DNA from: an uncultured Thermotogae bacterium
GTDB taxonomy: Bacteria > Bipolaricaulota > Bipolaricaulia > UBA7950 > UBA9294
Length of the DNA stretch: 59,069 nucleotides
NCBI GenBank assembly: GCA_964582975.1
Contig: CAZOUO010000001.1
Span: 1 to 59,069 of the forward strand
Reading direction: 5' to 3'
In this document: piece by piece, positions 2,392 through 13,563 of the stretch
How positions within the stretch are numbered: the stretch's first letter is position 1
Layout of the letters: each line of letters opens with the position of its first letter
Program-made: the position numbers and the translations under genes
The notes under the pieces: generated by a model
The model's input: the letters and a program-made list of their open reading frames with translations, nothing else
What the model was told of the DNA's origin: nothing
Databases searched by the model: none

Positions 2392-3248
2392 ATCCTCCTT
2401 AGTCTAGGATTGATGACCTCGTCCAACCCTCGGCCGATGAGGTAAAAGGAAAAGCACAACGCCGAGATGGAAAGGCCGGGCGGGAGCATCCAATAGGGCG
2501 CTCTGAACGTATTACCTGTCTTGAAACACCATTGCAGCATCATCCCCCAGCTTACCGTGTTCGGATCGCCAAGTCCAAGGAAGCTCAACGCCGCCTCGAG
2601 AAAGATCGCACCGTTTGCGGTCAGGCTCATGTAGACGAAGGCGAGTGGCAGCACCGAGGGCGCCATGTGACGCAGGATGATGCGCGCGTTGCCGGCTCCG
2701 TACGCCCGCGCCGACTCGATAAAGTCTCGCGTACGAAGCGATAGCGCCTGTGCGCGGATCACACGGGCGATCCCTGGCCAACCGAGAAAGCCGATCAACA
2801 GGACCACTCCCCAGATGGAGAGCTGTCCGAGTGCCGAGGAGACCACCAGCACAAGCGGAATCAGCGGAAGCGTCAGCATCACGTCGACCAGGCGCATAAG
2901 GGTTCCATCGACCGCGCCGCCGTAGTGGCCGGAAAGAAGGCCGACGATCGTGCCGATGGCGACAGACGTCGCAGCGGCGATTACCGCAACGAGGAGCGCG
3001 GTGCGTGCGCCGTGCATGAGTTGGGAGAGGACGTCGCCGCCCCACGCATCGGTTCCCAAGAGGTGCCGCGCCGACGGGGGTGAGGTCCCCAGGATTTCGG
3101 GGTCCATCCCCTGTACGGGGTCGTAGATCGGACTCATGCGCGGAAGGATCGGGGCGAAGAGTGCCATCAGGACGAAGGCAAGTAAGATTCCGGCGCCCAA
3201 AAAGCCGAGTGGGTTATTTCGCAGCGACAACCAGCGTCTCTTGCTCAT
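2388..3248 (-). CDS. ABC transporter permease (DppC/OppC-like)
   Basis: The true start is most likely ATG 3248 (MSKRRWLSLRNNPLGFLGAGILLAFVLMALF...), which forms an ATGA overlap with the stop of the upstream permease. It has multi-TM BPD-transporter-like sequence. The 150-aa Arg/Gly-rich N-terminal extension in the 437-aa track ORF overlaps the upstream gene and is rejected. Confidence 0.85.
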   Translation of the reverse strand: MSKRRWLSLRNNPLGFLGAGILLAFVLMALFAPILPRMSPIYDPVQGMDPEILGTSPPSARHLLGTDAWGGDVLSQLMHGARTALLVAVIAAATSVAIGTIVGLLSGHYGGAVDGTLMRLVDVMLTLPLIPLVLVVSSALGQLSIWGVVLLIGFLGWPGIARVIRAQALSLRTRDFIESARAYGAGNARIILRHMAPSVLPLAFVYMSLTANGAIFLEAALSFLGLGDPNTVSWGMMLQWCFKTGNTFRAPYWMLPPGLSISALCFSFYLIGRGLDEVINPRLRRM

Positions 3249-4216
3249 TGGTATCGAATCCTCGGATCCAAGACCACGTACAGAACGTCGGCGACAAGAT
3301 TTGCCACCAGGACGAGCATCGCGATCAGTAGAAACGCGCCCTGGGCGAGCGGAAAGTCCTGCGCCAACACCGCCTCGACGAGCTCGGTCCCCAAGCCGGG
3401 CCAGGAAAAGACCGTCTCGGTGAGCACGCCCCCGGACATCGAGAACGCCAGCGATAGTGTGAACGAGGTGACCAGCGGCAGCATCGCATTTCTCGCCGCG
3501 TGTTTGTTCTTGACAACACTCTCGGAAAGGCCTTTGGCCCGCGCGGCGGTCACGTAGTCCTGTTCGAGCGTCTCCAGCATCGAGCTTCGCATCACCAGCA
3601 TCGAACCGGCGAACATCACCGCGGTCAGAACGAAGAGCGGTAGGGCAAGATGGTGCAGGACATCCAGAGCCTTCGCCCACGTGCTCGCCGTGCCGATCCA
3701 AAGCTCAGGCGAGAGGATCCCGCCGAGCGGGAACCAGTCAAGCCGATAGGCGAAGATCCAGATCACGAGCATCCCGAACCACGGTAAAAACACGGTGTAA
3801 AACGAAAGCCCCAGCAGCGTGCACGAGGTCTCCAACGGGCCACCGCGCCGCCACGCGATCAGCTTGCCGATCCACATGCCCAGAGCAAAGGAGAGGACGG
3901 ATGCGGTTGTGAATAGCAGCAGCGTCGCCGGCAGGCGGTCCACGATTACGGCAAGCACGGGACGCGCGGATTGAAACGAGCGGCCAAAGTTCCCGCGAAC
4001 GACGTTGCCGAGATAGAGGAAATACTGCGTGAACAGCGGGCGGTCCAAGCCGAACTGGCGGCGCAACGCCTCTTTGGCCTCCGGTGGCATCTTCGGATCG
4101 AGCACCATCGAGGCTGGATCCCCCGGCATGAGACGAAACAGGAAGAAGAGTACCGTGAGGATGACAAACAGCGTCACGATCATCTGCAACAATCGCCTTG
4201 CGATGTATCCGCTCAT
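3245..4216 (-). CDS. ABC transporter permease (DppB/OppB-like)
   Basis: 323 aa starting MSGYIARRLLQMIVTLFVILTVLFFLFRLMPGDP, which is the canonical DppB/OppB N-terminus. GGGAGG precedes the ATG at 4216. It ends with the ...DPRIRYQ motif typical of this family. Confidence 0.9.
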   Translation of the reverse strand: MSGYIARRLLQMIVTLFVILTVLFFLFRLMPGDPASMVLDPKMPPEAKEALRRQFGLDRPLFTQYFLYLGNVVRGNFGRSFQSARPVLAVIVDRLPATLLLFTTASVLSFALGMWIGKLIAWRRGGPLETSCTLLGLSFYTVFLPWFGMLVIWIFAYRLDWFPLGGILSPELWIGTASTWAKALDVLHHLALPLFVLTAVMFAGSMLVMRSSMLETLEQDYVTAARAKGLSESVVKNKHAARNAMLPLVTSFTLSLAFSMSGGVLTETVFSWPGLGTELVEAVLAQDFPLAQGAFLLIAMLVLVANLVADVLYVVLDPRIRYQ

Positions 4217-4592: not shown

Positions 4593-5483
4593 GTGCAAAA
4601 CAAGCTGCTCCATCGAATCATTGTTGGAATAATGGTTGCTACCGTGGCCGGCTTGCTTCTTGGCGCGCAGGCTCCACGAGCGCTGCAAAACGAGGAGCCG
4701 GAGCGGATGATCATTGCCGGTGTACCGCCCTTTGGACCCACCCAGTGGACGGATGATAAGGGCAACACGGTCCCCGCCGGTTGTGGTCCGGAGGCGGCGC
4801 GTATGCTCCTCGCCTATTACGACCGCCGCTACGGGTACAGGCAGCTCGTCCGTGCCCAGCCTGGTAAGGCGATCGTCGAGCTTCACGATCGGATGAATAC
4901 GAGTACCGTGATGTGGCAGGGACAGCCACAAGGATTCACCGATCCCACGATGTTCAAAAATGGGCTGAAAAGCTACATCAAGGACCGCTACTCAGGGGGA
5001 GCCAATCTCGGAAGTAAAGCTGGTACTTTGAATCAGGTGTTCGAAAAGTCGGTCGAGCTGATCCAGAACAACAAGCCGCACATCATTCTCTTCGACTGGG
5101 AGGGCGAGACGTGGATCTTCCCCAACCACTATTCGGTTGTCGTTGGGTACAGCAAGGAGGCCGGCCGCAAGCAGCTCATCATCAACCCCGGCTGGGGGTA
5201 CGACTTCCAAATCCTTGACATGACCGACTCGGCGGTCGCCCCGGCGAGCATCGTGTGGATCGAGAAGATGAATAATCCCCCTGACGGACAAGGGGGTTGT
5301 GCAATCGGCCCCGGTTCGGCACAGGGAATGTGGGTCACCGACGCAAACGGCAAGTACCAGCTGAAGCCCGAACTGCACAAGCACTTCGATCCCAACAACA
5401 CCGTCAGCTGGTCAGCGTCTGACAAGACGGAGTTCTTCCTCCCGCAGACAAACAGCAAGATCGGAGCCTGTTCCTGGTTTTAG
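4593..5483 (+). CDS. Secreted/anchored papain-fold cysteine peptidase-like protein (peptidase C39-like domain)
   Basis: GTG start preceded by AGGAGG. It has an N-terminal hydrophobic anchor. GCGPEAARMLLAYY is a candidate Cys nucleophile context, and NHYSVVVGY a candidate His, as in C39-like/BtrH-like domains. The C-terminal ~80 aa are of unknown type. Confidence 0.5.
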   Translation: MQNKLLHRIIVGIMVATVAGLLLGAQAPRALQNEEPERMIIAGVPPFGPTQWTDDKGNTVPAGCGPEAARMLLAYYDRRYGYRQLVRAQPGKAIVELHDRMNTSTVMWQGQPQGFTDPTMFKNGLKSYIKDRYSGGANLGSKAGTLNQVFEKSVELIQNNKPHIILFDWEGETWIFPNHYSVVVGYSKEAGRKQLIINPGWGYDFQILDMTDSAVAPASIVWIEKMNNPPDGQGGCAIGPGSAQGMWVTDANGKYQLKPELHKHFDPNNTVSWSASDKTEFFLPQTNSKIGACSWF

Positions 5484-5605
5484 GAGAACGTCGATTTCCT
5501 CGGTCAGCGGTGGTCTGCCTTCGTCGCTGGCCGTCTTCTTTCAAGCCGGGGTGGATCTGGATCTGTAGCTTGTTGGAGGCTCTTCAACTGCGGTACGCAT
5601 TTTCC

Positions 5606-6127
5606 TCAATCGATGCCCACGAGGTTGCTTCGACGTTCCAGAAGAATGACGTCACGCCAGGTTCCCGCCAGTTCTCCGAACGCCATCTTGCCGAGCTTCT
5701 CTCGAGCGCCCACCTCTCTGAATCCGTGGCGCTTGTGAAGCGCGAGGCTTGCAGTGTTCTCGGGAAATATCCCTGCCTGCAGTGTCCAGATCCCCGCTTT
5801 TTCCGATTCGCTGATGAGTGCGGCAAGCAAGGCCGATCCGATTCCCTGCCCCTGGTGCTCACACGCCACATAAATGCTCACTTCCGCCACGCCTGCATAG
5901 ACACAACGCTCTGAAACCGGGCTGAGAGCGGCCCAGCCCGTTATCTCTTCACCGATTCTGGCGACCAGACGGCATTGCGGCAGGTGGTCGGCGTTCCAGC
6001 TTTCCCAGTTTGGCGTGGTTGCGTCGAACGTGGCGTGTCCGGTCGAGATCCCCTCAAGGTAAATCGCGCAGACGCGCTCCCAGTCTTCCGGCTCCATCTT
6101 GTCTATAATCCAGTTGCTTGCGGCCAT
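5606..6127 (-). CDS. GNAT family N-acetyltransferase, phosphinothricin acetyltransferase (PAT/YwnH)-like
   Basis: 173 aa. The layout EDWERVCAIYLEGISTGHATFD ... QGQGIGSALL ... HKRHGFREVG matches the PAT-type GNAT layout. Confidence 0.8.
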   Translation of the reverse strand: MAASNWIIDKMEPEDWERVCAIYLEGISTGHATFDATTPNWESWNADHLPQCRLVARIGEEITGWAALSPVSERCVYAGVAEVSIYVACEHQGQGIGSALLAALISESEKAGIWTLQAGIFPENTASLALHKRHGFREVGAREKLGKMAFGELAGTWRDVILLERRSNLVGID

Positions 6128-9829: not shown

Positions 9830-10174
9830 TCACAACACCTTGCGGATCTTCTCCAAGGTGGCCTTGGCCTCGGGAGCAAAGCCGAAGAACTTCTCCAGTT
9901 CCTGGCAAGCATAGTCGCTGCAATGAGCGCAATTTCGAACCTTTTTCTCGGTCCCACAGGCACGGATCTTGCACTCGCGACAATAGGAGCAATGGCGATC
10001 CGTGGTGGAAAGACAGCCATCGCAGAGACAGTCTTCCGCAGCAAGTGACGTGTTGAATTCCTTGCTCCATTGCTCGGCGACCTGTTTCAACGCCTCCTGG
10101 TCGTCCTTCTGCGTGGCAATGAAGGCCGGGCACTCTGTGCACACAAGGCCGCAGTAAGCGATCATTTTTTCCAT
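9830..10174 (-). CDS. DUF3795 domain-containing Cys-rich (probable Zn/Fe-S) protein
   Basis: 114 aa starting MEKMIAYCGLVCTECPAF, with further CxxC clusters, as in DUF3795. AAGGAGG precedes the ATG. Confidence 0.7.
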   Translation of the reverse strand: MEKMIAYCGLVCTECPAFIATQKDDQEALKQVAEQWSKEFNTSLAAEDCLCDGCLSTTDRHCSYCRECKIRACGTEKKVRNCAHCSDYACQELEKFFGFAPEAKATLEKIRKVL

Positions 10175-10339
10175 TGACTACCTCCTTGACCTTCATAGTA
10201 TCACATTCGTGTCTCTTTGGAGCTAGTGCGCAGGCTCTGCGCGAAGGAGTTGGTCAGCTGTGGGTTCCAAGCGGCCTACTTGGGTACTGTTGTTGAAACT
10301 TGGCCTGGTATGTTTCCGGCTTGGATCCCCAAGGAGGCC

Positions 10340-11641
10340 CTAGGGTTGCTCAGATAGATCTTGCACCACAGTGTCTCGATACGAGGAGGGGATGTCGAGT
10401 TGTTCCAGGCCGAATTCCTCTTTCGCGATCGTCATCAGAACCTCTGAAGGTGCCGCATGTGGTGACATGGCGTAAACGCGCTCCTTGAACACCTTGGTGA
10501 TCCCCTTGGCCACGGATGGCTCGATCTTGAAGTACTTGATCTCCTTTAAGAAGTAATAGATCACATTCCACCCGCTCAAAGGACCAAGGAGGATCTCCGA
10601 CTCGGTAACCCCGAATTGATCGAGCGGATGGGCCTCATAGGTGGCAGCATTGTTCAAGACGGCCTTTTGGTGGACACCGGCGGTGTGGGTCCGGTTAGTG
10701 AGGCTGACCGGTTCTTTATCGTTGACCAGCATGTTCAGCTTGGAGGCGAGCAGCATATTGATCGGGTAGGACTCGCATAGGTGATACCCTTCTAGAAGGC
10801 TGAATTGTCGCTCAATGTGCAGGTTGAATAAAAAGGCGGTCATCGAGGTGATGCCGGATCGTTCGCCAATACCCAGCACGGTGGTGTCGATGTAGTGCAT
10901 GCCGGCCTTCGCCGCTTCTAATGCGTTCACCAATGAGAAACCACGGTCATCGTGAAAGTGGCCCTCCCATTCTTGATTTGGGTAACGCATCTGTAAGCTG
11001 TTCAGCCTTTGACGGACCACGGCTGGCGTCGCGACACCGACGGTATCAGGAATGCCCACCCGATCAACAAGCGGCACGATCTCGTCATACACACGGTACA
11101 GATCCCGTTCATTCGTGCGAAAGGCATCCTCACCGCTGAACCGTAAGATAAGATGCGGATAATCGCCCCTCAGCTGCTCGATAAGGGACCGCGCATCGCG
11201 CACGATCGCATCCAGGGCTTTGCCGTGACTGTGCTGGCGGGCGTGCACAGAGAGCCCGAAGAAGAGGTTGAGTCCGTCGAATCCTGCCTCGGCGGCCGAA
11301 GCGATGTCCTCAGGATGACAACGGACGTGCGCCAGCAGGAAGGTGTATCCCTTCTGAGTGATCATGGCATCACGTGTTTCCTTAATGGCTGCCAGGTCAT
11401 CGAGTTCTTGTGGGCTGACCGTCGGGGCAAACAGTTCAACGAATTTGACGCCGTAGATGATCAGCGCGCGCAAAAGTTCGACCTTGTCATCTTGGGTGAA
11501 GAAGTACTTGCCGTAGTCGTGCAGCAGAGAGCTCTGCGCCCCCTCGCGCAAGGTGGTATCGATAATCTCCAAGGAGCGAGGGTTGTATTGGGCAAATCGA
11601 GAAGCCTTTCTAGACAAGATAATCGACTCTCCTTTCTGCAT
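10340..11641 (-). CDS. DRE-TIM metallolyase family synthase (homocitrate synthase / 2-isopropylmalate synthase-like)
   Basis: 433 aa containing EIIDTTLREGAQ, HFHDDRGFSLVNALEAAKAG and LGIGERSGI, the hallmark motifs of the HMGL-like/LeuA/NifV/HCS family. It lies immediately downstream of lysW. The REGAQ variant of the usual RDGEQ is noted. Confidence 0.75.
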   Translation of the reverse strand: MQKGESIILSRKASRFAQYNPRSLEIIDTTLREGAQSSLLHDYGKYFFTQDDKVELLRALIIYGVKFVELFAPTVSPQELDDLAAIKETRDAMITQKGYTFLLAHVRCHPEDIASAAEAGFDGLNLFFGLSVHARQHSHGKALDAIVRDARSLIEQLRGDYPHLILRFSGEDAFRTNERDLYRVYDEIVPLVDRVGIPDTVGVATPAVVRQRLNSLQMRYPNQEWEGHFHDDRGFSLVNALEAAKAGMHYIDTTVLGIGERSGITSMTAFLFNLHIERQFSLLEGYHLCESYPINMLLASKLNMLVNDKEPVSLTNRTHTAGVHQKAVLNNAATYEAHPLDQFGVTESEILLGPLSGWNVIYYFLKEIKYFKIEPSVAKGITKVFKERVYAMSPHAAPSEVLMTIAKEEFGLEQLDIPSSYRDTVVQDLSEQP

Positions 11642-11758
11642 TCACCTTTCGTAGCCTCCTCTAGTAGGCCAATCTGAGGAAATCCGACTGCGTATCTGCT
11701 CAGGTTCGGCCTCAATGCGCCGTCGAGTTCTCGGTCAGTGTTCGTACCGATGTTGTCC

Positions 11759-11932
11759 TCACTCTTCCCAGTGTTCCTCTTCCTCAGGCGCTAGTTCGAG
11801 TGCGAGAGGCCCCGGAACGCGTACGACCAGCTCTACCCAGCAGTAAGGGCATTGCACGATTGCACCTTGCTGAATCTCCCTCGCCAGCGAGATATCAGCG
11901 GCACATTCGGGACAAGATCCTTTTCGCCACAT
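11759..11932 (-). CDS. lysW: Amino-group carrier protein LysW (alpha-aminoadipate/glutamate carrier)
   Basis: Start ATG 11932 (GGAGGAAG upstream). The 57-aa product MWRKGSCPECAADISLAREIQQGAIVQCPYCWVELVVRVPGPLALELAPEEEEHWEE has a CPxC...CPxC zinc ribbon and an acidic C-terminal tail ending in Glu, as in Thermus/Sulfolobus LysW. Confidence 0.8.
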   Translation of the reverse strand: MWRKGSCPECAADISLAREIQQGAIVQCPYCWVELVVRVPGPLALELAPEEEEHWEE

Positions 11933-11965
11933 GCTCTTCCTCCTTGAGGCGGTTGTATTCCAGTA

Positions 11966-12010
11966 CCAACAATAATTGCCGGCGTTCCGTTTGGTCTGGA
12001 ACGCCGGCAA
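11966..12010 (-). terminator. Attenuator/terminator hairpin 2 in the lysW leader
   Basis: On the minus strand, TTGCCGGCGTTCC-AGACCAAAC-GGAACGCCGGCAA forms a perfect 13-bp stem and is followed by TTATTGTTGG. It lies 34 nt upstream of the lysW ATG and directly after a Lys-codon-rich short ORF. Confidence 0.5.
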
Positions 12011-12038
12011 CCTTTCCTGGCTTAGTGAAAGGCCTACC

Positions 12039-12119
12039 CTATCCAGACCCAGCGTCTGGCTTCCAGCAGGCCTTCTTCTTGGATGTCACAATCCCAACCT
12101 GTCCGATTGTCGTCTGCAT
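12039..12119 (-). CDS. Candidate leader peptide 2 (26 aa, KKK run)
   Basis: The ORF ATG...TAG encodes MQTTIGQVGIVTSKKKACWKPDAGSG, with AAG AAG AAG plus a fourth AAG. A weak purine-rich SD (GAGAGAAG) lies upstream. It is followed by terminator hairpin 2. Confidence 0.45.
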   Translation of the reverse strand: MQTTIGQVGIVTSKKKACWKPDAGSG

Positions 12120-12181
12120 GTTGACTTCTCTCTTACCCGTTGCTTTTGTTCCCAGATTCCTACTCGCTCTTTGACTCTCTC

Positions 12182-12219
12182 AAAAAAAATGGACCCTCGT
12201 TTTCTTGGGTCTGAGGGTC
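12182..12219 (-). terminator. Intrinsic terminator/attenuator hairpin 1 in the lysW leader
   Basis: On the minus strand, GACCCTC-(14-nt loop)-GAGGGTC is followed by CA and T8. It sits inside a divergent intergenic region, so it cannot be the 3' end of a conventional gene. Confidence 0.55.
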
Positions 12220-12253
12220 GCTTTTGTCTTCGCGCACTAGGAAAAGTGTTTAC

Positions 12254-12322
12254 CTAGCCAGACCCGAAGGCCGGCTTCTTTGCCTCCTCCTTTGGTACGC
12301 TTCTTCGCCGATTTTGAATCAA
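12254..12322 (-). CDS. Candidate leader peptide 1 (22 aa, RRR and KK runs)
   Basis: AGGAG, 6 nt, then a TTG start. The product MIQNRRRSVPKEEAKKPAFGSG has the same K-P-x-x-G-S-G-stop ending as leader peptide 2. It is followed by terminator hairpin 1. Confidence 0.35.
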   Translation of the reverse strand: MIQNRRRSVPKEEAKKPAFGSG

Positions 12323-12357
12323 CCCACACTCCTAGAAAACACACTGATGTTAAGAGG

Positions 12358-12386
12358 ATACTATCCTAGTTGAGGAGTGTTGTCAA
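12358..12386 (-). promoter_or_regulatory. Sigma70-type promoter for the lysW leader transcript
   Basis: On the minus strand: TTGACA (12386-12381), a 17-nt spacer, then TAGTAT (12363-12358). The predicted start is near 12351. Confidence 0.5.
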
Positions 12387-12516
12387 GATTTTTGTCGGCT
12401 ATGAAGGGATTGGCCGCTGGCACCCTGACTTCACAGTTGTATTGTGCTTTGCGCACCTTCCGTGTCATGTGCAAAGCGAGGACGTATGCTTTCGGACCCA
12501 CCGTGTAGGAGAGGGT

Positions 12517-13563
12517 ATGCAGGTCTCAAAACAAGAGCGATTGCTGATGAGACACCTTTTGCTTTCCCTGTTCTTGGGGTTGAGCCTCTTGTTGACAGGC
12601 TGTTTCTTGATGCCCAACACACCGCCTGTCGCACAATTTCAGACCATTCCTTCGGGGGGAGACGCGCCACTCACGATTCAGTTTGACGCGCAAAGCTCCT
12701 ATGATCCAGATGGGCACATCGTGTCTTACATGTGGAGCTTTGGGGATGGGCAAAGTGGGGTCGGCACAGTGGTGTCCCATCACTACATCGCGCCAGGGGT
12801 CTACACGATCACTCTAACGGTTGAAGACAATCGCGGAGATGTCGATAACTCTGATACTGTCCTTTTTGTCAGCGATCCAGGGGACTTTTCCCGCCAGTAT
12901 CAGTGGCAGTACGGCGGACAGACGTGGTATTGGAACGTGGCCATTCCCAAGTGGCTCTACTACGAATACCGCCAGCGCGCACGCAGGCCGTGGGGCTCCC
13001 GTGATTACGATGATTACGTTTTGGACGCACTTGACGATGAGACCATGCGAGGTCTGGGGCAGACCATTCAAGACGCCATGGGAGGGGACTACTACGCGAC
13101 CGTCGAGTGTGCGTTCCATTTCGTCCAAGCTGCCGTTGTCTACGTGCACGATCCGAGTGGATTTGAGTATCCCCGCTATCCGATCGAGAGCCTCGTTGAT
13201 GAGATCGGAGATTGCGAAGATTCCGCTATCCTCTATGCCAGTCTGGTCAGAACCCTAGGGTACGGAGCATTAATCTCCGCGGTGGATACCGATGGTGATG
13301 GCAAAGCAGATCACATGGTCGCTCTCGTACCGATTCACGAGTCGTATTCGGAGGCGATCAGCTGCGGGCCAGGGCGCTCTCCGAGCTTCTGGTGGTATGG
13401 GGGCCAGCTTTATGCCCTCGCCGAGACAACCGGAGATCCGCCAGGGTATTATCAACTGGGATGCGATCCTTGGGGGCTCGGCGCAATGGATTTCGTTCAA
13501 ATATGGGACGTGGCGCGGATAGATACATCGCCGCGAGTCAAAAAGTTTATCCTTCCGGAATAG
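12517..13563 (+). CDS. Lipoprotein with PKD domain and C-terminal transglutaminase-like cysteine-protease core
   Basis: Start ATG 12517 (TAGGAGAGGG upstream). It has the lipobox LLLTGC. The PKD signature is DPDGHIVSYMWSFGDG...YTITLTVEDNRG. The later GDCEDSAILYASLVRTLGY ... DHMVALV resembles the Cys/His of a transglutaminase-like core. Confidence 0.7.
   Translation: MQVSKQERLLMRHLLLSLFLGLSLLLTGCFLMPNTPPVAQFQTIPSGGDAPLTIQFDAQSSYDPDGHIVSYMWSFGDGQSGVGTVVSHHYIAPGVYTITLTVEDNRGDVDNSDTVLFVSDPGDFSRQYQWQYGGQTWYWNVAIPKWLYYEYRQRARRPWGSRDYDDYVLDALDDETMRGLGQTIQDAMGGDYYATVECAFHFVQAAVVYVHDPSGFEYPRYPIESLVDEIGDCEDSAILYASLVRTLGYGALISAVDTDGDGKADHMVALVPIHESYSEAISCGPGRSPSFWWYGGQLYALAETTGDPPGYYQLGCDPWGLGAMDFVQIWDVARIDTSPRVKKFILPE

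Follow-up and report, generated by a model that had tools for sequence, protein, structure and literature searches.

The window analysed here, a stretch of 59,069 nucleotides (nt) from an uncultured Thermotogae bacterium (contig CAZOUO010000001.1), carries on its minus strand a lysW gene followed by a homocitrate synthase-like gene (HCS). Two successive modules, each composed of a short open reading frame (ORF) and an intrinsic terminator, lie upstream of lysW, and this tandem leader was analysed together with its relatives as a candidate pair of lysine-responsive attenuators. A promoter, both short ORFs with their common ends and both hairpin/T-run terminators had been described in the original prediction, and all of them were recovered at the positions listed below.

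Layout of the tandem leader upstream of lysW

12386-12358, minus strand: sigma-70-type promoter, TTGACA 12386-12381, 17 nt, TAGTAT 12363-12358; 10/12 positions matching
12333-12254, minus strand: module 1 (type A) Shine-Dalgarno (SD) sequence and leader ORF; AGGAG 12333-12329, 6 nt, TTG 12322; ORF 12322-12254, translated as 22 codons, MIQNRRRSVPKEEAKKPAFGSG, stop TAG 12256-12254
12310-12302, minus strand: module 1 Arg run CGG-CGA-AGA
12292-12290 and 12280-12275, minus strand: module 1 Lys codons
12300-12231, minus strand: module 1 anti-antiterminator hairpin, from minimum free energy structures
12300-12295 with 12236-12231, minus strand: module 1 helix P1, GCGUAC with GUGCGC
12291-12284 with 12246-12239, minus strand: module 1 helix P2, AGGAGGAG with CUUUUCCU
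12274-12269 with 12265-12258, minus strand: module 1 apical helix 1:2, region 1 CCGGCC with region 2 GGGUCUGG
12219-12182, minus strand: module 1 intrinsic terminator with a 7-bp stem, GACCCUC 12219-12213, 14-nt loop, GAGGGUC 12198-12192, U8 12189-12182
12213-12207, minus strand: module 1 region 3, CAGACCC, complementary to region 2
12119-12039, minus strand: module 2 (type B) leader ORF, ATG 12119, 26 codons, MQTTIGQVGIVTSKKKACWKPDAGSG, stop TAG 12041-12039
12080-12072 and 12062-12060, minus strand: module 2 Lys codons
12059-12054 and 12050-12043, minus strand: module 2 region 1 CCAGAC and region 2 GGGUCUGG
about 12038-12026, minus strand: 3' strand of module 2 P2, GGGUAGGCCUUUC, then linker and terminator
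12010-11976, minus strand: module 2 intrinsic terminator, a perfect 13-bp hairpin, UUGCCGGCGUUCC 12010-11998, loop 11997-11989, GGAACGCCGGCAA 11988-11976
12000-11993, minus strand: module 2 region 3, UCCAGACC
11975-11968, minus strand: weak U-tract 3' of the module 2 hairpin, UUAUUGUU
11932-11759, minus strand: lysW, putative first regulated gene, ATG 11932, encoding a 57-aa amino-group carrier protein (TIGR01206, E = 1.7e-10)
11641-10340, minus strand: HCS, putative second regulated gene, 433 aa (TIGR02146, E = 6e-65, below the curated cut-off)

The TTGACA-17-TAGTAT combination was the top-ranking sigma-70-like site within positions 10000-13000. When the leaders preceding synthases of 78-90% identity were aligned, the −35 box was invariant and the −10 box was kept in four of the five relatives; transcription would be expected to start downstream of this promoter. 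On the minus strand, the module 2 hairpin is followed by TTATTGTT. The possibility that the hairpins are terminators of an upstream gene was rejected, since the neighbouring gene (12370-13563) is divergent and lies on the other strand.

Aligned directly, the two modules share their ORF ends, a GAAGG motif within the ORF and CAGACC within the terminators. Their common core, AAGCCNNNCNNNGGGTCTGG, occurs exactly twice in the window, both times in this leader; at least two matches, with two mismatches allowed, were obtained in 9 of 100 shuffles, so that this recurrence is not significant alone, and the modules stand out from chance because they are conserved in relatives. The sequence GGGTCTGG, common to both modules, is complementary to CAGACC(C) inside each terminator and is also locked in a local hairpin with the codons directly 3' of the Lys codons.

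A family of leader modules in lysine operons

Hundreds of relatives of the synthase were found, assigned to Anaerolineales or Chloroflexi wherever they were named. The whole leader, with its −35 box, both ORFs and both terminators, is kept in five loci whose synthase is 78-90% identical, confirming that two leader-ORF/terminator modules stand in series between a conserved promoter and lysW. Our sample comprised these five loci, 80 further metagenome loci collected via protein alignment and several genome contigs; a separate synthase-based scan of a contig collection gave just two loci, both without a usable leader. A profile hidden Markov model (HMM) built with nhmmer from 22 seed modules was searched against 91 related loci and the window, and gave 33 matches corresponding to 28 distinct modules, all on the operon strand. 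Seven further divergent modules, one in locus L081 and six of a subtype that we call type C, were read by eye, bringing the family to about 35. Every module, whether detected by the HMM or by eye, adjoins lysW or HCS, directly upstream and on the operon strand.

The operons found 3' of these modules encode LysW, LysX, LysY, LysZ, LysJ, LysK, HCS and homoaconitase. The lysW orthologues carry the PF21344 (Zn_ribbon_LysW) domain, and the HCS orthologues sit within full alpha-aminoadipate (AAA) operons of the order lysW-X-Y-Z-J-K-HCS-hacA. Given this position directly upstream of lysW or HCS in AAA operons, the element is the leader of the AAA lysine operon. In L065 (about 3150-3485), the 330 nt preceding a lysW gene contain no module recognisable as a leader ORF with its terminator, and the element is thus not universal among the lysW operons of the group.

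The modules fall into three subtypes, two of which are characterised as follows:

Type A: ORF end ...KKP[A/T][F/L]GSG-stop; terminator G[A/G]CCCUC-CAGACC...; when alone, mostly upstream of HCS
Type B: ORF end ...K(K)PD.[G/R]SG-stop; terminator CCGGC..UCCAGAC...; when alone, mostly upstream of lysW

In type C, region 3 constitutes the whole 5' arm of the terminator, regions 2 and 3 have changed together, and the ORF often extends several codons beyond region 2. Four type-C leaders lie upstream of lysW (L044 2488-2683, L054 3356-3548, L057 3049-3235 and L083 3367-3538) and two upstream of HCS (L079 6947-7136 and L090 6955-7144); L081 is a separate divergent leader outside these six. An Arg-rich type-C peptide is exemplified by MFTVALPKREFRLPKRPNCGSRLVWLG. 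A replacement of Lys by Arg in type C as the result of a higher G+C content was considered and not borne out, the G+C fraction being 0.54-0.65 in all groups.

A tandem of type A followed by type B was found in the clade of the window (the window, L003, L004, L006, L007 and L012) and in a second clade (L017 and L020), where it directly precedes HCS and where both ORFs are Lys-rich (KKKEDKK and KKGNKK) and lack an Arg run. The resemblance between modules 1 and 2 had been attributed to a duplication. Their relatedness was borne out, whereas a recent local duplication was not: module 1 is 49% identical to module 2 and 59-77% identical to the type-A modules of other genomes, which indicates two old paralogs placed in series.

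An open frame preceded by an SD-like sequence and a start codon was found in all 28 HMM-detected modules and in L081, and in all of them the stop codon (TAG, TGA or TAA) is located exactly 9 nt 3' of the base with which region 2 begins. The N-terminal sequence and the length of the ORFs diverge across the family. At module 1, the SD sequence and a TTG or GTG start codon at a constant position are kept in six relatives. Codons were exchanged synonymously, as with Lys AAG to AAA in L012 and other codons likewise, and the frame of module 2 is preserved in L006 through the synonymous changes CCA>CCG, GCT>GCG and TAC>TAT. This pattern suggests that the leader ORFs are translated.

Lys makes up 16.8% of leader residues versus 3.0% in the long ORFs of the window, a 5.6-fold enrichment, and is concentrated at fixed distances from the stop codon. 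Counted over the 28 HMM-detected modules, these positions are:

Codon −7: Lys in 24/28 modules
Codon −8: Lys in 21/28 modules
Codon −11: Lys in 19/28 modules
Codon −12: Lys in 22/28 modules

Lys occupies codon −7 or −8 in 29/29 leaders when L081 is included, and an equivalent Lys, aligned on region 1, is present in 6/6 type-C leaders. The spacing between Lys(−7) and region 2 is constant (9 nt). The conservation of the short ORFs and their Lys codons, on which the original prediction had made itself dependent, was therefore observed in relatives, while the Arg run was not generally kept.

These ORFs bear on a different possibility, namely that a structured cis-regulatory RNA (a riboswitch, or a protein- or tRNA-binding leader) senses lysine or another ligand directly and that the short ORFs are incidental. 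Several nucleotide stretches (GGGUCUGG, CCAGACC and GAAGG) are indeed strongly conserved, third codon positions included; the G-S-G codons vary to R-S-G, so that the constraint there acts on the RNA rather than on the peptide; and a tandem arrangement is common among riboswitches and T-boxes. However, a search of the leader against Rfam, with which a known riboswitch was to be excluded, gave no match at the gathering threshold or at E values up to 10, lysine riboswitch and T-box included; the sole permissive match was RT-6, on the opposite strand, with E = 2.6. Frame, SD/start and stop position are maintained despite the N-terminal divergence, and the Lys codons stay at fixed positions through AAA/AAG exchange. 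No conserved multi-helix, aptamer-like core was seen, and the conserved pieces are the three competing strands of an attenuator. We therefore regard direct ligand sensing by the RNA as very improbable.

The gene order 3' of the leader differs between loci:

L024: lysW-lysX-lysY-lysZ-lysJ-lysK-HCS-hacA
L012: lysW-lysX-...-lysZ-lysJ-lysK-HCS-DUF3795
Window: lysW-HCS-DUF3795

The same tandem leader precedes lysW-lysX-...-lysZ-lysJ-lysK-HCS in L012 (1103-7118), and in the window (10340-11932) the genes from lysX to lysK are absent from the interval that separates lysW and HCS. With tblastn, no match to lysX, lysY, lysZ or lysK was obtained elsewhere in the 59-kb window. The locus has been rearranged, and the genome must hold the remaining AAA genes outside it. 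Directly 3' of HCS, a gene on the minus strand (9830-10174) encodes a Cys-rich DUF3795 protein (PF12675) of 114 aa; it is syntenic in the window clade (L004 2372-2716, L006 4475-4819, L007 4470-4814 and L012 7283-7627) and may be co-transcribed with lysW-HCS. In L003, the closest relative (90% synthase identity), this position just 3' of the synthase is occupied by an insertion sequence (4632-5803) consisting of an rve integrase and an HTH_Tnp_1 ORF. Far from the leader, a full-length c-di-GMP-I riboswitch aptamer (RF01051; 58919-59003, minus strand; 74.6 bits, E = 7.7e-13) was the only Rfam match of the window above the gathering threshold.

Competing RNA pairings and ribosome position

Aligning all modules with MAFFT (A4) did not bring out a structural alignment, and only three pairs were found in it by RNAalifold. 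The subtypes were thus aligned separately (A5 and A6), and explicit structures, duplex energies computed for each module and shuffle controls were used in place of a covariance model. In A5, the distant members were misaligned over the P2 columns, and P2 was therefore tested module by module.

Region 1, which begins at the codon after Lys(−7), consists of the Pro codon and the next codon (CCR-GNC) and pairs in an apical hairpin with region 2 (GGGUCUGG, the G-S-G codons). This 1:2 pairing is intact in 98.7% of the cells of the alignment of 13 type-B members, and its probability in the free RNA of module 1 is 0.97. P2 extends the 1:2 hairpin by pairing the upstream Lys-cluster codons with the linker 3' of the stop codon. 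It covaries, beating shuffles in 23 of 29 modules and being formed by very different sequences; in module 1 its complementarity has z = −4.3, reached by 0 of 300 shuffles. The 5' strand of P2 is an SD-like purine run (AAGGAGG or GAAGG; window 12284-12292 and equivalents in most modules), near-invariant in nucleotides (A4 columns 12-16) and located 8-9 nt 5' of the −8/−7 Lys codons. This run may serve purely as a helix strand, or it may in addition delay the ribosome.

In types A and B, region 3 (CCAGACC) is complementary to region 2 and is located in the top or the loop of the terminator. The terminator stem carries compensatory double changes in 7 of its 13 pairs, with a covariation score reached by 0 of 500 shuffles, and module 2 folds with z = −7.0 relative to shuffles. 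Within type B, 2:3 is paired in 97.1% of cells, compared with 16-57% when the strands are slid against each other. In module 1, the 2:3 duplex has an energy of −14.7 kcal/mol, matched by only 1% of shuffled region 2 sequences. Across the subtypes 2:3 covaries, and the cognate pair was the best in six of the seven rows of the cross-matrix of the following strands:

Canonical: region 2 GGGUCUGG, region 3 CCAGACCC
L054 and L057: region 2 GGGUCUCGG, region 3 CCGAGACCC
L083: region 2 GGUCUUCGG, region 3 CUGAAGGCC
L044: region 2 GGCCUUCGG, region 3 CCGAGGGCC
L079: region 2 GGCCUUCGG, region 3 CCGGAGGCC
L090: region 2 GGCCUUUGGC, region 3 GCCAAGGCC
L081: region 2 CGUCUGG, region 3 CCAGACG

Where these strands change, the end of the peptide varies freely (GSG, RSG, GLG, GAFG and QVFG), and the conserved 'G-S-G-stop' is thus an RNA constraint and not a peptide motif. 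This variation also weighs on the idea that the leader encodes an arrest peptide, in which binding of free lysine in the exit tunnel would cause K-K-P-x-x-G-S-G-stop to halt the ribosome at the stop codon, so that region 2 would be covered and termination enforced. The C-terminus is strongly conserved in types A and B with the stop codon fixed directly after it, and stalling at a stop codon has precedents in TnaC and SpeFL (PMC12360218). However, besides the free exchange of the peptide end, type-C ORFs often run several codons past region 2, and an arrest is not needed, since a ribosome that reaches the stop codon already covers region 2. We consider an arrest peptide highly unlikely.

To represent the ribosome, a masked footprint was used in equilibrium folding. 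The free RNA folds as the 1:2 hairpin plus the terminator, and a ribosome at the stop codon also gives the terminator. With the last Lys codon of module 1 in the A site, the probability of the terminator falls from 0.75 to 0.03 and that of 2:3 rises to 0.87. A ribosome at the last Lys codon brings the terminator probability below 0.1 in module 1 of the window, in the first modules of L007, L017 and L020, and in L016 and L074. For module 2, transcripts truncated before the 3' arm is made form, in the stalled state, a bipartite antiterminator consisting of the 2:3 helix and GGUAG.GCCUUUC/GGAAAGG.UUGCC, which occupies eight nucleotides of the 13-nt 5' arm. An alternative antiterminator, GGGUUG:CGACCC, pairing the start region of ORF1 with the terminator arm, was dismissed as it is not conserved in relatives. 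The codon-by-codon equilibrium scan of ribosome positions was not relied on, as the states of module 1 are near-isoenergetic and the truncated-transcript column is uninformative for this module.

Every feature of a ribosome-mediated attenuator that can be examined computationally is present: a leader ORF with a ribosome-binding site, Lys codons at fixed positions, a terminator, mutually exclusive 1:2, 2:3 and 3:4 pairings, and lysine genes downstream. In our judgement, the leader probably consists of two classical ribosome-mediated transcription attenuators placed in series, each of which would report on the availability of charged tRNA-Lys. For the AAA lysine genes, attenuation through Lys codons, as originally proposed, is the best reading.

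Under this model, each module would comprise a short ORF with Lys codons near its end, a P2 plus 1:2 hairpin over the 3' half of the ORF that hides region 2, then region 3, and finally the 3' arm of the terminator with its U-tract. When lysine is plentiful, the ribosome would reach the stop codon, 1 nt after region 2, and mask region 2; the terminator would form and transcription would end. When Lys-tRNA is scarce, the ribosome would stall with Lys codon −8 or −7 in the A site and bury region 1, located in the next 6-9 nt, leaving region 2 just outside. With Lys(−7) in the A site, the modelled geometry would place region 1 at about +6 to +11 from the P site, inside the ribosome, and region 2 from about +15. 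The exposed region 2 would then pair with region 3, aided by the inner hairpin, the 5' arm of the terminator would be kept unpaired and RNA polymerase would read on. An untranslated leader would adopt the 1:2 hairpin and the terminator, and transcription would terminate. Two such gates in series should multiply, which would reduce read-through in the basal state and make the response to lysine steeper.

Several observations do not sit easily with two Lys attenuators. Long-stem modules, including module 2 of the window, keep their terminator at equilibrium whatever the ribosome position, so that antitermination in module 2 would have to be kinetic, and the U-tract of this module (UUAUUGUU) is weak. 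In module 1, no more than about 2 kcal/mol separates the alternative states, so that computed predictions of the stall codons that flip the structure are unreliable. For a ribosome halted at the upstream Lys cluster (−13 to −11), the prediction is an undisturbed 1:2 helix. Within types A and B, the changes in 2:3 are one-sided and preserve pairing only through wobbles. Arg occupies codon −7 in L030, L056, L054 and L057 and codon −8 in L043, and Arg-rich peptides are encoded by four of the six type-C leaders. Finally, the region 3 complement has been lost in L025. In this type-B module upstream of HCS (253-364), CUCCCGAAC stands in place of CUCCAGACC and region 1 is altered (ACAGAC); this attenuator either is decaying or switches in another way.

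The arginine run and known attenuation systems

The Arg codons of module 1 had led to the proposal of an Arg attenuator in front of a Lys attenuator. In such a dual device, module 1 would respond to Arg-tRNA through CGG-CGA-AGA and module 2 to Lys-tRNA, and a shortage of either would derepress lysW-HCS; in a weaker form, module 1 would respond to both. The Arg triplet is kept in only three of the six window-clade orthologues (the window, L007 and L012). In L012 it has undergone two synonymous codon changes (AGG CGT AGA), which hints that selection in that lineage has acted on the residues or the codons. In L003, whose synthase is nearest to that of the window, it reads RQS, in L004 WRS and in L006 WCS, while the Lys codons and all helices are retained and the KK-P-x-F-G-S-G end of ORF1 is invariant in all six. 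No Arg run was found in either ORF of the L017/L020 clade or in any single type-A module. Arg is not enriched in the leaders (6.2% of residues versus a background of 6.1%), and the type-C leader of L090 contains no Arg at all.

The structural context of the run can be read both ways. It lies directly 5' of the P1 strand GCGUAC, which a ribosome stalled there would melt, and in the equilibrium scan stalls at R6 and R7 gave terminator probabilities of 0.11-0.15, the competing states having −32.8 and −32.5 kcal/mol with the order of folding ignored. That drop corresponds to a difference of 0.3 kcal/mol, and energies this close leave room for some response to an Arg stall; the unmasked P2 and 1:2 helices, on the other hand, would form before region 3 is transcribed. 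Some members interchange K and R at the sensor positions, and in some archaea LysW-type carriers function in the synthesis of Lys as well as of Arg (PMC10433800). However, HCS is lysine-specific, so that control by Arg would have no obvious logic, and the universal KK at −8/−7 makes module 1 a Lys module in any case. Taken together, these data did not uphold an Arg attenuator or a dual Arg-Lys device, which we consider unlikely. It is similarly doubtful that, in the window, L007 and L012, the Arg triplet abutting the 5' strand of P1 is a selected second input, giving an Arg plus Lys module followed by a Lys-only module. The K/R interchanges (K-R-P, R-K-P and the Arg-rich type C) may, with a comparably low probability, mean that part of the family reports both basic amino acids; if true, such dual sensing would agree with a LysW pathway supplying ornithine and arginine as well.

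Returning to Lys attenuation in both modules, the closest known system, judged by analogy, would be the leader of the AAA lysine cluster of Thermus thermophilus, a leader-peptide attenuator reportedly described by Tsubouchi et al. in J Biol Chem in 2005. That leader also combines a Lys-codon short ORF, an intrinsic terminator and an alternative pairing upstream of AAA genes, with lysine repression exerted via ribosome position. The present family differs in its phylum (Chloroflexota, Anaerolineales), its two modules in series, its three subtypes and its fixed Lys-(9 nt)-region 2 spacing. We found no description of this Chloroflexi Lys leader family in the literature searched.

The family shares with the trp, his, leu, thr, pheA and ilv leaders of Enterobacteria the 1:2/2:3/3:4 logic, the regulatory codons at the 5' edge of region 1, a stop codon positioned for masking of region 2 by a ribosome that completes the peptide, and termination in the absence of leader translation. 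It differs from them in sensing lysine, in having region 3 in the loop or top of the terminator (types A and B), in its tandem arrangement and in having only 2-5 Lys codons, in two clusters. In most bacteria, lysine is handled by the L-box riboswitch (RF00168), which likewise controls lysine biosynthesis by premature termination in response to lysine; its architecture is unrelated to that of the family, and it was matched nowhere in the window, whether the gathering or the permissive threshold was applied.

Complete tandem TPP riboswitches and the triple T-box of thrZ are serial sensor-plus-terminator units for a single signal, giving a tighter OFF state and a steeper response. The window leader resembles them in placing two complete units for the same signal in series; they sense a metabolite or an uncharged tRNA through RNA, whereas its sensor would be the translating ribosome. 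Two short ORFs in one leader, each with its own attenuation-like choice of stem-loops, are also found in the Salmonella mgtCBR leader. Its tandem attenuators differ in what they sense, mgtM responding to ATP and mgtP to Pro-tRNA (Lee and Groisman 2012, PMC3641672). The authors regarded this tandem of attenuators with distinct signals as singular, and the two elements act independently and additively (PMC3641672). In contrast to mgtM and mgtP, which are unrelated in sequence, the window modules are paralogs that both apparently read Lys.

These results do not bring a major change in the understanding of regulation. They would extend leader-peptide attenuation of lysine synthesis, of which Thermus is the only case known to us, to Chloroflexota, and they describe a well-populated and structurally coherent family, with three subtypes and about 35 examples in our sample, that is absent from Rfam. 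The family could be used in annotation, where it would mark the start of AAA lysine operons in metagenome-assembled genomes of Anaerolineae, and the fixed 9-nt distance between Lys codon and region 2 offers a natural data set on the geometry of the ribosome footprint in attenuation. The A-B tandem, recurrent in two clades, would be a rare series of leader-peptide attenuators for the same signal, and could serve to test whether serial gates sharpen a response.

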